This document shows positions 1,630-30,468 of a stretch of 64,000 nucleotides of DNA, piece after piece; within the stretch, counting starts at the first letter, position 1, and every line of letters starts with the position of its first letter. The notes below the pieces were generated by a model. The model ran no database searches. It had not been told where the DNA came from and was given only the letters and a program-made list of their open reading frames with translations. Source of the DNA: Escherichia phage AV110. A program made the translations under genes and the position numbers. The DNA lies in the sequence record OR352940.1; one strand, 5' to 3'.

Positions 1630-2046
1630 TTATGCAGCAACCATCTGCTTTTTAATAGCTTCAGGCAGTGATTCAATATATTCTGGAATTTTAGAAGCAA
1701 CAATTTCGCCAGCTGCAATTAGTTGTTCGTCGGCATCAACACAGTAAAAATCTTCAAGGCGTTCAGAACCGTCTTTATCAAGAACGATTTTAGCACCTGC
1801 TTCGATAGAATCTTTATAGTGCTTACGCATCAAATGAATCCACATATCAGACACATCGTTATCAATAAAACCATAAATCATAAAACGAGTTTCTTGTGGC
1901 AAAGATTGGAGTTTTTTAGCACTTGCGTCATCACAATGCAGGACCCATGCTTTACGAACACGATTATGGTTATGCGGGTTAGCGTCAGTACGGATAGAAG
2001 TAACTTTCAGATCAGCAGCGGTAAAACCTTTAGCAGTAGTAAACAT
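1630..2046 (-). CDS. rpbA: RNA polymerase-binding protein RpbA-like
   Basis: 138-aa ORF at the position of T4 rpbA between 45 and 46; assignment by synteny and size. Confidence 0.6.
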   Translation of the reverse strand: MFTTAKGFTAADLKVTSIRTDANPHNHNRVRKAWVLHCDDASAKKLQSLPQETRFMIYGFIDNDVSDMWIHLMRKHYKDSIEAGAKIVLDKDGSERLEDFYCVDADEQLIAAGEIVASKIPEYIESLPEAIKKQMVAA

Positions 2047-2058
2047 ATTATTTCTCTC

Positions 2059-2259
2059 TTATTCGTAGAAGTCGGTAACTGTCCATGCGGAATTGCGATT
2101 AGACATTATTTTATTATACTCATCTTTAAAAGCAGATTTGAGCATTTGTTCAGTAACAATATGTTCTTCACCTGAAAACGTATTGGTCAAAACATATTTT
2201 TTAATTTCAGGGACAACGAGAAGATGTTGTCCAGTTGAATACTCCATGTTGTTCTCCAT
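2059..2259 (-). CDS. Hypothetical small protein (position of T4 45.2)
   Basis: 66-aa ORF tightly packed between rpbA and 46. Confidence 0.45.
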   Translation of the reverse strand: MENNMEYSTGQHLLVVPEIKKYVLTNTFSGEEHIVTEQMLKSAFKDEYNKIMSNRNSAWTVTDFYE

Positions 2260-2301
2260 TTAATTTGATGTGGTCATTATAACCACATCGTGTTAAAGCG
2301 T

Positions 2302-3990
2302 TTATGAAACAGTCATTACAGTAAATCGTCCAACTTTGCTCATTTGCAAATGTTGTCCATAACGTTGAGGGTCATGGTCCCTATGAGAAATAATGAACAC
2401 GTTAGTATTTTGTAAACTTCCAAGAATGGTATCTATAGCCTTAACAGCTTCAGAATCAACTGCCCCATCAAAAACCTCATCAAGAATCAGAGTGTTGATT
2501 TTAACACCAGAGACCTTTTCAGCAATATCTCGCCATGTAAACAACAACGCGATATCAATGCGTGCTTTTTCACCTTGACTAAATGAAGCATAACTAAAAT
2601 CTTCACGACCACGTGATTTTATAGATTCATTGAATTCTTCATCAATAGAAAACACGTAATCAGCTTCCATAATTTTAAGATAATGGTTAATCTGCTTGTT
2701 GAACAGAGGCACATATTTTTTAATGATAGCACCTTTAATACCAGAATCTTTTAACATATCTGTGATAATACCACGATGGTATTTTTCAAGAACGATATCC
2801 GATTTTGTTTTAATGATTTTATCAAGTTCTTTTTGAAGCAAAGCTATCTCATCGGCATGGTCGATAAATTCTGCTGAGGCTTGCTCTATTGCAGCTTTAA
2901 CTTTCTTAGCTTTATCAATAGTGGCAATCATTGCTTGTTTCTTGGTACGAATATCAGATGCAAGGTCCTGTTTAGTCTTAACATTAGCTCTATATTCGTC
3001 CACTAGGACACTCAGATTATCTCTGTGACATGTAAGTTGCTCGAATGAGTGATTACATTCATGAAGCTTATCGGTAATCTTAGAGACAATAGGATCACCC
3101 TGGTGCAACTGTGATGCGCAAGTAGGACATGTACCGCCGTCATGATACATCTTAATAACTTTGTTGTATGAGTCAATTTTAGATTTAATCAAGAATGCTT
3201 CTTGTCCTATCTTGTTGAATGCCTCAGTAGGGTCTTCATCAAGAACGATATTAAGTAGTCGCTCATTAGCTTCTTCGATTTCTGCTTTTAATGAACGAGC
3301 TTCTTTGGCTAGGTCGTCATACATATTCTGTAGACGCGCTACATTATCACCAGATAATTTCTTTTGACGTTCGATATTCTCGTTATAAATCTTAATTTGT
3401 TGGATAACACCATCTTTCTTGGCATCGAGAACTTGTCCCTGAGAATTAAGTTCGCGAACTTGAGACTTATTGATTTTATCCATTTCAGCGAGTGTGCCGA
3501 CTTCTAAAAGGTCTTCGACAAGTTTTCTACGAGCAGGGGTGCTAAGAGCCATGAAAGGGGTATACCCTGCCGTCCCAAGCACAACGATCTGTTTAAAAGA
3601 CGCGTATGACATTCCGATGCTACGTTCAAATTCTTCTTGGAAGTCACGACTGCTGGCAGATTCATCGAGACGAACACCGTCAACGGAGATTTCGAAAATA
3701 TTGGGCTTTTGGCCACGTTTAATGAAGTATTTTTTATCATCGAATTCCATCCAAAGCTCAACTAAGAGCTCTTTCTTGTTCGTGCTATTAATGATTTGTC
3801 CTTTCTTAACATCACGAAATGGTTTACCGAAAAGTCCGAAAGTAATGGCTTCTAACATCGTAGATTTACCACCGCCATTTTTACCGGTGATTAAGGTCTT
3901 TTGGACTTTATCTAATTGGATATCGATAGGATTCCCACCTACCGACATGATGTTTTGATAACGAACACGATTTAATTTAAATGATTTCAT
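2302..3990 (-). CDS. 46: Recombination endonuclease ATPase subunit gp46 (Rad50/SbcC-like)
   Basis: 562-aa ORF; N-terminal Walker A GKNGGGKST, long coiled-coil middle, C-terminal Walker B LILDEVFDG; synteny with 47. Confidence 0.92.
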   Translation of the reverse strand: MKSFKLNRVRYQNIMSVGGNPIDIQLDKVQKTLITGKNGGGKSTMLEAITFGLFGKPFRDVKKGQIINSTNKKELLVELWMEFDDKKYFIKRGQKPNIFEISVDGVRLDESASSRDFQEEFERSIGMSYASFKQIVVLGTAGYTPFMALSTPARRKLVEDLLEVGTLAEMDKINKSQVRELNSQGQVLDAKKDGVIQQIKIYNENIERQKKLSGDNVARLQNMYDDLAKEARSLKAEIEEANERLLNIVLDEDPTEAFNKIGQEAFLIKSKIDSYNKVIKMYHDGGTCPTCASQLHQGDPIVSKITDKLHECNHSFEQLTCHRDNLSVLVDEYRANVKTKQDLASDIRTKKQAMIATIDKAKKVKAAIEQASAEFIDHADEIALLQKELDKIIKTKSDIVLEKYHRGIITDMLKDSGIKGAIIKKYVPLFNKQINHYLKIMEADYVFSIDEEFNESIKSRGREDFSYASFSQGEKARIDIALLFTWRDIAEKVSGVKINTLILDEVFDGAVDSEAVKAIDTILGSLQNTNVFIISHRDHDPQRYGQHLQMSKVGRFTVMTVS

Positions 3991-27567: not shown

Positions 27568-27876
27568 TCAATTAGAAAATAAATTTATCCAAGTTTTTTC
27601 TTTAATCAAAAATGGGACGGAATTAAACGCCATTAAACTTTGAGTGATTAATCCCTTAAACGGCCCATCAATAAATTCCATTTTGAAATGCGGAATACTA
27701 GTCATCAACCGTGCATTAGGAGCAGTACAAAGAACCTGCTGACCTGCGAACGGGCCTTTAGTCAAACGATATCGTTTAGGTTTAAAATGGTAGATCTCGT
27801 AATTTTCTACAAGAGCCCTTTTATTGCATACTGGACTGTTATAACAATATTCAAAAACTTCAATAGTGGTCATCAT
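27568..27876 (-). CDS. Hypothetical protein coupled to the upstream P-loop NTPase
   Basis: ORF track 27568..27939 trimmed to MMTTIEVF; ATGATGA start/stop overlap with the NTPase gene. Confidence 0.5.
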   Translation of the reverse strand: MMTTIEVFEYCYNSPVCNKRALVENYEIYHFKPKRYRLTKGPFAGQQVLCTAPNARLMTSIPHFKMEFIDGPFKGLITQSLMAFNSVPFLIKEKTWINLFSN

Positions 27877-28412
27877 TGCATTCCAATCACAAAAAATTGA
27901 GGACGAGCAATACCGCCGCTGCAATATTTGCTTTTGCAACAGTGTTGGACTGTTTTGATATGGATGTCGTAAATCTTATCCATATCAGGAGCTTTAATAG
28001 GCTCGTCAATTATGTACAGAATACGAGAAAGCGTTAATCCACGGAATTTATATCCTTCATTACCAATAAAACTACGGACAGAATCAGTAAATAAACGGAA
28101 TCGAATATCATCGCTAGAATAACGAGAAAATTCTTTTTCAATGTTGCCAGCAGAAATTTTAGAATAAGCTGAAGTATTAGAAAGAACAATAACTGTTCCA
28201 CCGTCATACAGCCAATTAACAGCAAAATTAGTTACTGCGGTCGATTTACCTGATTGTCTGCCGCCGTCTAAACGAAGTGTACAGTACTGCTTGAGTACGT
28301 CTTCAAATGGTGGGGCATAACCGTTCTTACAAATTTCTTCTACTCTAGCATCAGAATGGTGTGTAAAAGCATTCATCAGGGATAGATAAGGTCCAGTTAA
28401 AAATGTTCTCAT
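27873..28412 (-). CDS. Small P-loop NTPase (Walker A GGRQSGKST, Walker B ILYIIDEP), function unknown
   Basis: 179-aa ORF; motifs read from the translation. Confidence 0.55.
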   Translation of the reverse strand: MRTFLTGPYLSLMNAFTHHSDARVEEICKNGYAPPFEDVLKQYCTLRLDGGRQSGKSTAVTNFAVNWLYDGGTVIVLSNTSAYSKISAGNIEKEFSRYSSDDIRFRLFTDSVRSFIGNEGYKFRGLTLSRILYIIDEPIKAPDMDKIYDIHIKTVQHCCKSKYCSGGIARPQFFVIGMQ

Positions 28413-28439
28413 ATTATTTCTCTTAAGGTTGGGGCCATT

Positions 28440-28684
28440 CCATGGCGCATGAATTGTCCATTTCTGTATTTACCCATTACCGCACTTGGGCTCGACCTTA
28501 TTACAGGTTGGCGGGAATCCCTCATAGAATCATGAGGTCCAGGTTGTTCCCATTTTATTTGAATGTAAATATTTTTGCCACGCGTTTACGAATTATACCA
28601 AAAAACACGTGGCAATTCACAGTATTCGGCGATTAAATGTTGATCAGCAAATTTAGATACTAAAGTCAAATTAATATAAGTCAT
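28440..28684 (-). pseudogene. Degraded partial copy of denV (N-terminal 32 codons in frame, then frameshifts and deletion)
   Basis: Hand translation [32 protein letters not shown] vs intact Den[29 protein letters not shown]; DNA alignment continues past the stop. Confidence 0.6.
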
Positions 28685-28740
28685 TTACCCATCCAAGTAA
28701 TTATGAATATACTATCACAATTCTAGGAGAAAGTAAACTG

Positions 28741-29043
28741 TTATTTACCTTTAATTACTTTAGCTGCTTCGATAGCCGCTTGCTGAAGGTCATCCATAGA
28801 CATACCGAATTTAGAAGCAAAGTTATCAATTTTCTTTTCGACAGCATTCAAAGGCTTGGCCTGTTTACCTTCATTAGCGCCAGGAAGAGCGAGAATACGC
28901 TCTTTGTCAATATAAAGGCTTACAAGTTTCTTACGGTCTTTATCGGACAAATCATGAAATGAATGGGCCTTTTTATTTATAGCGGCTTCTAATTTACCTG
29001 CACTCACTCGAGCTTCAGTAATAAATTCTTGATATGTTTTCAT
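28741..29043 (-). CDS. ipII: Internal protein II (capsid-targeted, MKTYQEF signal)
   Basis: 100-aa ORF matching remembered T4 IPII along its length. Confidence 0.8.
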   Translation of the reverse strand: MKTYQEFITEARVSAGKLEAAINKKAHSFHDLSDKDRKKLVSLYIDKERILALPGANEGKQAKPLNAVEKKIDNFASKFGMSMDDLQQAAIEAAKVIKGK

Positions 29044-29069: not shown

Positions 29070-29384
29070 TTATTCTTTAGGGAAGTTTTTAGAGTATGCG
29101 TCATAAAGTTTATTACCGATGCGACGGAAAACTTTAGCTGCAAAACGGTTTTCAGGGTTTTTAATCATGATTTGCATCATGTAAGTTCCTGCATCCGAAA
29201 GAGCTTCTTCATAGTACCCATTAATTTCTTTAAGAGTCCTACGTTTACCACCAGGACCATCGACAGTAATTTTCCATTTACCTGTAGAAGTGCGGCTCGG
29301 TGGCTCAACTTGTTCAATCCAAATATAACCACCTTCAACGCGTTGGTTGGCGGATTCTGCAATAAATTCTTTATACGTTTTCAT
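29070..29384 (-). CDS. Internal protein with capsid-targeting signal (MKTYKEFIAE)
   Basis: 104-aa ORF; N-terminal 10 aa is the T4 capsid-targeting sequence, body unrelated to IPII. Confidence 0.65.
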   Translation of the reverse strand: MKTYKEFIAESANQRVEGGYIWIEQVEPPSRTSTGKWKITVDGPGGKRRTLKEINGYYEEALSDAGTYMMQIMIKNPENRFAAKVFRRIGNKLYDAYSKNFPKE

Positions 29385-29447: not shown

Positions 29448-29708
29448 TTAAGCTTTACCGCCAGAAATAATTCCGAAGTTGTTAAAATCGTATCCAATAT
29501 CGTCAACATCTACTTTAGGACTTGCTACAACATAAGCAATTTCACTACGTTTTGCATAGGTGTTGATTTCTTTACCATCGCCACCTAAGAAAGAATACCC
29601 ATTACGTTTTAATGAGCCAAAGTCTTCCGCATCACCAATGAAAGCTTTAACTTTAAATTTAGGACCTTTGGCATCTGCTTCAGCGATAAATTCTTGATAC
29701 ATTTTCAT
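29448..29708 (-). CDS. Internal protein with capsid-targeting signal (MKMYQEFIAE)
   Basis: 86-aa ORF with the same N-terminal signal. Confidence 0.65.
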   Translation of the reverse strand: MKMYQEFIAEADAKGPKFKVKAFIGDAEDFGSLKRNGYSFLGGDGKEINTYAKRSEIAYVVASPKVDVDDIGYDFNNFGIISGGKA

Positions 29709-29714
29709 TTTTCC

Positions 29715-30128
29715 TTAGTAAATTGATTTACCATAGTATTTGTACCAAGTCGGACGTTGAGCAATTTTTTCATCTAAGCGTGCTTGACTTATCGCAATGG
29801 ACGCTTCGGACGGGACATAATTATTACGAAATTCGGCAGGGATGTCGGAAATATCCTGGACAGTCGTGTCCTTGATTTTGAAACCACGTTTCAAGCATTC
29901 AGCGATTAGCTCGATTTGTCGTAAACGTAAAAATTCGAGTTTGTCGTAAAAGAATGTTACGTGACCTGTGCCTAAGATAAATGTTGGAGAGATTTTAAAA
30001 TCCTTTACACGTTTACCGTTTTGAACATGTTTACGGACTGCACCAAATACGCGTGGTAATTCACGATACTCAGCCATAAGATGTTGGTCGGCCAGTTCAG
30101 AAACAAGTGTTAAATTGATACGGGTCAT
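29715..30128 (-). CDS. denV: Endonuclease V (pyrimidine-dimer DNA glycosylase) DenV
   Basis: ORF track 29715..30140; start at MTRINLTLV (30128); matches remembered T4 DenV throughout. Confidence 0.92.
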
Positions 30129-30186
30129 AATTTCCTCCAAGTAGTTGATGAATGTATAGTATCAAAACCCTTGGAGGAAGTAAACA
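30129..30186 (-). promoter_or_regulatory. PeSL-type early promoter upstream of denV (arms TTCCTCCAAG/CTTGGAGGAA)
   Basis: Minus-strand reading GTTTACttcctccaagggttttgatactatacattcatcaactacttggaggaaattATG. Confidence 0.6.
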
Positions 30187-30468
30187 CTATTTTTCTGAAG
30201 CGCCTGAAATATATTTTTCAAGACGTTGTTTCATTAGCGAGCCGTTCTTAGCGATTTCTTCCGGTTTATCGCACATACGCAACAAGGCTTCAAGCTTAGC
30301 GATATCGCTGGTACGTTCAAATTTGCGAGTATCTATCTTACTAGCAAGTTCAGAAATACGTGCTAATAGACTTTCGGCTTCAACCAAAGCTGCACCTAGC
30401 TTAGTTGCAAATGTGTCAGTAGCTTCGTTAAGAATAGATTCTGATAAAAATTCACTATATGTTTTCAT
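30187..30468 (-). CDS. Internal-protein-like small protein ([11 protein letters not shown]-terminus)
   Basis: ORF track 30187..30483 trimmed to the MKTY start at 30468. Confidence 0.55.

Follow-up and report, generated by a model that had tools for sequence, protein, structure and literature searches.

The interval from 28740 to 28440 in a 64,000-nt stretch of Escherichia phage AV110 DNA (OR352940.1; the whole stretch is called the window, and coordinates count from its first letter) harbors, judged from its sequence, a pseudogene of the denV family. We consider it very likely that this relic descends from an imported Tequatrovirus-type ipII-denV block whose denV was later disrupted by deletion and drifted. 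The window itself is that of a Mosigvirus, an RB69-like T-even phage, and among database records it most resembles JS09, pEK20 and AV117 (about 97–98%). An intact denV of the RB69 type lies elsewhere in the same locus (Table 1).

Table 1. Features of the e to vs.8 locus in the AV110 window, listed in the order of transcription.
Feature	Position	Strand	Remarks
e (lysozyme)	30965-30465	minus	
Internal-protein gene between e and intact denV	30483-30187	minus	
Promoter stem-loop before intact denV	30125..30186	minus	stem UUCCUCCAAG/CUUGGAGGAA, Shine-Dalgarno included
Intact resident denV, RB69-type	29715..30128	minus	137 aa; PF03013 52.5 bits
Internal-protein gene after intact denV	29708-29448	minus	
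Internal-protein gene	29384-29070	minus	
ipII-like internal-protein gene	28741-29043	minus	
Putative left crossover zone	29030..29043	minus	first 14 nt (ATGAAAACATATCA) of the ipII-like capsid-targeting leader
Tequatrovirus-type block, very likely imported	28443..29030	minus	ipII-like body, promoter stem-loop, relic, start of vs.8 leader
Interval under study	28740-28440	minus	relic and conserved element, between ipII-like gene and vs.8
Promoter-early stem-loop (PeSL-like)	28683..28738	minus	T4 early-type promoter inside
5' part of denV relic, codons 1 to ~35	28580..28684	minus	holds 32-codon ORF 28586-28684
T6 run with extra T	28600..28605	minus	T5 in JS09, ESCO47 and intact alleles
Deletion junction	28574..28580	minus	one GGCAAA copy (28579-28574) left from two direct repeats
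Last ~21 nt of donor-type denV	28559..28579	minus	alignment to VIPECOOM02 and fFiEco06
Conserved element, putatively structured, not denV	28472..28551	minus	conservation on to about 28412
Predicted helix H1 GGGAA/UUCCC enclosing hairpin CCUCAU/AUGAGG	within 28551-28472	minus	
Predicted helix P1, closing the core	28512-28510 with 28474-28472	minus	
Almost invariant 32-nt core	28508-28477	minus	ACCUGUAAUAAGGUCGAGCCCAAGUGCGGUAA (ACCTGTAATAAGGTCGAGCCCAAGTGCGGTAA)
vs.8 homologue	27873..28412	minus	179 aa; nearest intact gene after the retained promoter
vs.7, vs.6	further downstream of vs.8	minus	

The relic is recognizable in both protein and DNA. Comparison of its 32-aa ORF with the N-terminus of the window's intact DenV by BLASTP gave 23 identities in 28 residues (E 6e-15), in agreement with the minus-strand DenV-like peptide and stop reported in the initial annotation, except that the ORF runs three codons beyond that earlier reading. 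At the nucleotide level, the alignment to the intact gene that had been proposed there pairs 28738–28584 with 30185–30029 at 72.5% (E 3e-18; local score 93 versus 18.4 ± 2.2 in shuffles), and no similarity between 28430–28740 and the intact denV was found beyond that stretch. The ORF ends at 32 codons because of the frameshift from an extra T at 28605–28600, which occurs in the window and pEK20 only. Similarity had been described as continuing past the stop with frameshifts; it does so for about six more bases, to 28580, and is then interrupted by the deletion junction, after which come the last ~21 nt of denV, whose old stop codon (28561–28559) is now CAA. The remainder of the interval had also been read as denV, but 28553–28440 has no denV similarity.

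The 32-aa ORF has no match to PF03013 (gathering threshold 23 bits), and a frameshift-corrected relic peptide of 42 aa scores 18.6 bits, below that threshold. We take the full-length T4 enzyme to have ~138 residues, with an N-terminal Thr2 nucleophile, Glu23 and an Arg3/Arg22/Arg26 cluster, of which Arg3 and Arg22 are presumably catalytic/DNA-binding residues. Compared with T4 DenV, the relic amounts to about a quarter of the protein, is frameshifted, and has kept Thr2, Glu23 and Arg26 with Arg3 and Arg22 replaced (R3Y, R22C) and residues ~38–131 deleted, and is thus no full-length enzyme. Its origin in the T4 endonuclease V family (DenV; PDB 2END, 1VAS; PF03013, Pyr_excise) is still evident from residues 1–28, and nucleotide homology at the start, the 3' end and the flanks places it in the denV lineage. 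An internal deletion of 292 bp, a frameshift, a mutated Shine-Dalgarno sequence and the loss of purifying selection together identify it as a pseudogene. The window's intact DenV matches T4 endonuclease V (2END) at E 1.8e-82.

By sequence, the parent of the relic is a distinct denV allele class, represented by fFiEco06 and VIPECOOM02, and not T4's own allele. Relic DNA shares 72% identity with the window's resident denV, versus 89.5% (162 nt) with that of fFiEco06 and ~90% with that of VIPECOOM02, it carries the diagnostic residues of the fFiEco06/VIPECOOM allele (LIAEY and GI(V/I)RK), and on its 3' side a 26-nt tail and the flank match donor-type denV. Consistent with this, a phage-genome search matched the 5' half of the interval at 90–92% to the denV start of many Tequatroviruses and the 3' half to DNA just downstream of the same Tequatrovirus denV, the two matching pieces lying ~290 bp further apart in those genomes than in the window. 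The DenV protein of VIPECOOM02 shares 77.5% identity with T4 DenV and equally with window DenV, and identity between the latter two is 91%.

Alignment to fFiEco06 and to VIPECOOM02, the best intact relative, revealed one internal deletion in the relic, which joins ...CGTAAACAYGT and its following GGCAAA to a second GGCAAA followed by AATATTTAC.... On the VIPECOOM02 reference, this class A deletion is 292 bp long, lies between the two GGCAAA repeats and removes codons ~38–131. It is therefore one microhomology deletion, rather than the frameshifts emphasized in the initial annotation, that constitutes the main lesion. Beyond the window, the class A junction was found in only four records, those of pEK20, JS09 (two records) and ESCO47. 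The comparison of denV-ipII junctions among related phages also uncovered two further classes: class B, in AV117, W143 and SF, is a 347-bp deletion that joins ATGAC to TCGATG at the repeat GACTCG, and class C, in SA35RD, is a 507-bp deletion that joins GGGGTAAA to TACAG at the repeat GGTAAA. The three classes are independent and all have 6-nt microhomology; in random deletions of the same sequence, microhomology of at least 6 nt had a probability of 0.0026 per junction, and its presence at three of three junctions points to slipped or illegitimate recombination. Classical studies of T4 rII deletions described losses of a few hundred base pairs between 6-nt direct repeats. The denV deletions resemble these, but they occur naturally, as alleles that became fixed in separate phage lineages, and are not laboratory mutants. 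A T4 mutant clone from the laboratory, T4_3t3 (OL964735), has another deletion at the same gene junction, in which the end of ipII appears to be fused to about codon 14 of denV (~2100–2150) and the promoter stem-loop and denV start are missing.

Decay of the relic extends beyond the deletion. In its coding part, 9–14 of 104 sites differ between genomes compared with 1–2 of 303 in the adjacent ipII (Fisher p 1e-4 to 2e-7), a substitution density approximately ten times that of ipII, synonymous sites of the latter included (28684–28580 versus 29043–28741). Seven of the ten changes relative to VIPECOOM02 are G:C>A:T, with R3Y and R22C among the changes, and ~7/10 of the substitutions are non-synonymous, which indicates that there is no purifying selection on the ORF. 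A G->T change at 28691 has converted the Shine-Dalgarno sequence from GGAG to GGAT, and the window has two private changes not shared with pEK20, JS09 or ESCO47, namely one A lost before the ATG and CAC->CGC at the junction. The ~10% divergence of the relic is greater than simple neutral drift would lead one to expect from its near-identical neighbor ipII, and this counts against our main reading. Possibly, selection to silence a truncated DNA-binding peptide contributed to the excess. Gene conversion from the resident denV was considered as another source of the excess substitutions and rejected, since the changes are not toward the RB69-type sequence.

The DNA surrounding the relic is a mosaic. 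The window is colinear with RB69 from 31500 to 29013 (97.9%) and again from 28511 downward (96.6%), and between these segments lies a block of ~590 bp (29030–28443) that is 99% VIPECOOM02-like, with 2 mismatches in 286 positions in ipII and 1 in 111 downstream of denV. The flanks of the block are 97–98% RB69-like and only 71–80% Tequatrovirus-like, and at the same place RB69 has an unrelated gene, ORF123c, and no relic. This bears out the view of the initial annotation that the locus carries a footprint of cassette exchange. Also upheld was its placement of the relic at the position of denV in T4, as the gene order e-ipIII-ipII-denV-vs.8 is found in both VIPECOOM02 and T4. The intact denV does lie between internal-protein genes, as had been stated, but this is the native arrangement of RB69, to which the region is 97.9% colinear, and not the displacement that had been implied.

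Both edges of the block could be located. On the left, resemblance to RB69 extends to the ATG at 29043 and resemblance to VIPECOOM02 begins at 29029, so that the switch coincides with ATGAAAACATATCA, the sequence that begins the capsid-targeting leader of every ip gene; this signal-coding leader occurs at four ip genes (29011–29043, 29352–29384, 29676–29708 and 30436–30468). On the right, VIPECOOM02-like sequence reaches about 28443, past the resumption of RB69 similarity at 28511, which puts the crossover within a conserved element upstream of vs.8. Recombination between either signal-coding repeats or promoter stem-loops had been proposed initially; the former holds for one crossover, and the latter for neither. 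In this respect the window differs from the published cassettes, each of which is preceded by a T4 early promoter inside a stem-loop, or PeSL (PMC2839356, PMC4122927), as its mapped crossovers lie outside the stem-loops and the PeSL did not act as the recombination joint of the cassette.

Four other explanations of the relic were weighed. One is that the window's own denV and promoter were locally duplicated by unequal recombination between stem-loops and that one copy decayed. The presence on one strand of a pair of denV-like starts, separated by 1.4 kb and preceded by similar promoter hairpins, would fit such an event; however, the far lower identity of the relic to the resident gene than to the other allele class, which extends to the 3' tail and the downstream flank, and the adjacent ipII, a 99% match to a Tequatrovirus gene not present in RB69, make a duplication hardly credible. 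A different possibility is that the relic is the original Mosigvirus denV at the T4 position and the RB69-type copy the newcomer. Although the relic does occupy the T4 position in a locus that shuffles often, we regard this as unlikely given the contrast between the 99% Tequatrovirus identity of 29030–28443 and the 71–80% of the surrounding Mosigvirus DNA, the presence of ORF123c instead of a relic in RB69, and the embedding of the RB69-type denV in RB69-colinear DNA.

The short ORF might alternatively have been kept for a function, as a DNA-binding or dominant-negative micro-protein from the DenV N-terminus or as a leader peptide of vs.8. Persistence of the ATG and ORF in four phages, retention of Glu23 and the intact promoter are compatible with this, but the length and C-terminus of the ORF vary among class A carriers (45 aa in JS09, 42 aa in ESCO47, 32 aa in pEK20 and the window), classes B and C have no ORF, the Shine-Dalgarno sequence is mutated, and the mainly non-synonymous substitutions include R3Y and R22C, so that a retained function is very unlikely. 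Least probable, to the point of being negligible, is that the similarity reflects a leader common to unrelated genes. Promoter hairpins and ip leaders are indeed repeated at the locus, but the match takes in ~35 codons of denV together with its final 21 nt, it is specifically to annotated endonuclease V genes, and the repeated ip leader is a different sequence; the junctions in related phages likewise speak for a relic and not a common leader.

Our preferred reading, import of a Tequatrovirus-type block, rests on the allele identity of the relic, the RB69/VIPECOOM02 mosaic and the gene order of the donor. Under it, an RB69-like (Mosigvirus) ancestor would already have had its own denV between internal-protein genes when recombination with a co-infecting Tequatrovirus-like phage exchanged the ORF123c of RB69 for an ipII-denV block in T4 order, with one crossover in the 14 nt of signal-coding leader that ip genes share and the other in the conserved element upstream of vs.8. 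The incoming denV of the fFiEco06/VIPECOOM class would have been surplus, and could have lost its 292 bp by slipped or illegitimate recombination between the GGCAAA repeats; the replacements R3Y and R22C, the change of GGAG to GGAT, the loss of an A before the ATG and the frameshifting T would be later drift. The lesions themselves are observed, and from them we infer their order and cause. As for the direction and timing of the transfer, a recent import would be the simplest reading.

Redundancy with the resident gene is likely the cause of the denV loss, but is not required for it, since ESCO47 has the relic without an RB69-type denV between e and vs.8. All other relic carriers inspected keep the RB69-type gene. 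ESCO47 (locus 1–2556) follows a T4-like arrangement, with e, a 132-aa ip, IpIII, ipII and then the class A relic, and its e-vs.8 interval holds neither an RB69-type nor any other intact denV. When a chimeric query was used (473 records, 473 places), no record had the bodies of both denV alleles, and a genome carrying both copies intact did not turn up.

Unlike the coding sequence, which would be functionless and is best read as dead, the promoter stem-loop of the relic has been retained. Its early promoter consists of GTTTAC (28738–28733), a 14-nt spacer and GTGATAGTAT (28718–28709), in accordance with the T4 early promoter consensus that we used (GTTTAC-N14-gtggTAttaT). The identical promoter/hairpin sequence is annotated in SA35RD as a T4 early promoter and a rho-independent terminator, and promoter and hairpin are nearly invariant across seven aligned phages. 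A generic sigma-70/terminator scan missed the T4-type promoters, the relic promoter having 8 of 12 E. coli consensus positions. The similarity to the stem-loop before the intact denV noted in the initial annotation was confirmed, with GTTTAC and the hairpin both within the alignment, but its claim that the relic stem is no longer complementary was not: the stem folds at -17.2 kcal/mol (z -4.2; none of 200 shuffles as stable), compared with -19.7 kcal/mol for the intact donor-type hairpin and -19.1 kcal/mol (z -3.8) for that of the intact denV. The hairpins of T4, RB69-type and VIPECOOM-type alleles have differing arms, yet these are complementary within each. A stable stem-loop thus overlaps the promoter and sequesters in its 3' arm the former Shine-Dalgarno sequence; the G->T change at 28691 has weakened the stem slightly and destroyed the GGAG. 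Most likely, the predicted promoter and stem-loop continue to initiate early transcripts that enter vs.8 and to reduce read-through from ipII.

The other part of the interval is the conserved element in which the right-hand crossover fell. The window has a single copy of its core, which shows 95% identity in rV5-like phages and is also conserved among the genera of Tevenvirinae, and a 1-nt indel within the core of RB69 excludes its conservation as protein. Pattern scans for the core or element found 20 viral and 34 metagenome loci, whereas the core, sought as an exact pattern, was absent from all 185,579 bacterial and archaeal species genomes scanned, and a full-text literature search for its sequence returned no papers. 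Rfam 15 was searched at permissive thresholds: the window gave no family up to E = 10, and the matches in eight related loci were all to tRNAs. Two known identities, T4 rnaC and rnaD, were rejected by sequence. Further copies lie in the retrieved loci L011 (1129–1261), L021, L038, L046–L048, L051, L053 and L071.

Several features of the element suggest a folded RNA. Across 39 distinct sequences, covariation is seen in the core-closing helix at one pair (CG:32/GC:6), at the next (CG:29/UA:4/GC:3/AU:1/GU:1) and at a third (GU:12/AU:8/UA:3/GC:1), with a covariation score of 0.164 that was reached by none of 500 shuffles and compares with 0.010–0.075, about 2- to 16-fold lower, for slid controls. 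The G-U pairs in this helix point to RNA on the transcribed strand. The upstream helix has a lineage-specific sequence with compensatory changes between close relatives (GGGAA/UUCCC versus GGGAG/CUCCC, CCUCAU/AUGAGG versus CCUUAU/AUAAGG, and GAAUG/CAUUC versus GAGUG/CACUC). Within the core, the candidate inner helices show no variation, and the 18-36 pair does not hold consistently.

The hosts of the element are T4-like, rV5-like, ~47-kb, 97-kb and 130-kb phages. It is always in the ~180-nt gap before vs.8 in T4-like phages, but a tie to vs.8 was rejected because the non-T4 loci have no vs.8 homologue; 12 of 20 non-T4 loci have same-strand tRNA genes within 600 nt, with the element at the head of or inside the clusters. 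It must be dispensable, as class C phages are without most of it. Tentatively, and with slightly less than even confidence, we propose that 28551–28472 (to about 28412) represents an undescribed family of structured phage RNA. It is possible that such an RNA has a tRNA-related regulatory or processing role and is also a recurrent recombination joint. The element appears to have served as the right-hand joint in both the window, where the crossover comes after the core, and ESCO47, where it is inside the core. Phage SF has two copies (2619–2751 and 3115–3246 of its locus), one of T4 type and one of RB69 type, with an inserted 130-aa gene between them, as though the element marked the edge of a cassette.

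The annotated vs.8 of T4 (219 aa; locus 1754–2413) starts 41 codons upstream of the conserved MRTFLTG and so translates the element. In the window this region forms an ORF of its own (38 aa; 28525–28409), and in VIPECOOM02 and RB69 the frame of the extension differs or is broken. The N-terminal extension annotated for T4 vs.8 is probably spurious.

The relic is not new to the databases. At the same locus and with the same deletion junction as in the window, ORFs are recorded in pEK20 (UAW07165.1, with the identical 32 aa), JS09 (JS09_060, YP_009037383.1) and ESCO47 (ESCO47_00047), all labeled "endonuclease V N-glysidase", the retrieved annotation fields bearing no pseudogene or relic mark. The hyperplastic internal-protein locus of T-even phages is likewise established from Repoila et al. 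(1994), as described in PMC2839356; the ip/denV cassettes between e and vs.8 are variable and exchanged modularly among related phages. Given this GenBank annotation and the published shuffling of the locus, the finding of the relic is already known. Other arrangements of the locus are found in fFiEco06 (locus 2002–3070), where the lysozyme gene e and denV are immediate neighbors, in that order, and no internal-protein genes intervene, and in T2-like phages, where an ip gene (Ip4) occupies the place of denV behind the same promoter stem-loop; both show that the locus is freely rebuilt.

The value of the relic is modest. It offers a clean, datable example of the trading of accessory cassettes among T-even phages, with one crossover in the ip signal-coding leader, and it illustrates the erasure of a surplus gene by deletions between short repeats, with the promoter left in place. 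It also corrects database labels that call a 32–45-aa fragment "endonuclease V". The conserved element before vs.8, if it is a true RNA, would be a widespread phage RNA linked to tRNA clusters with no described family, and could outweigh the relic in importance.
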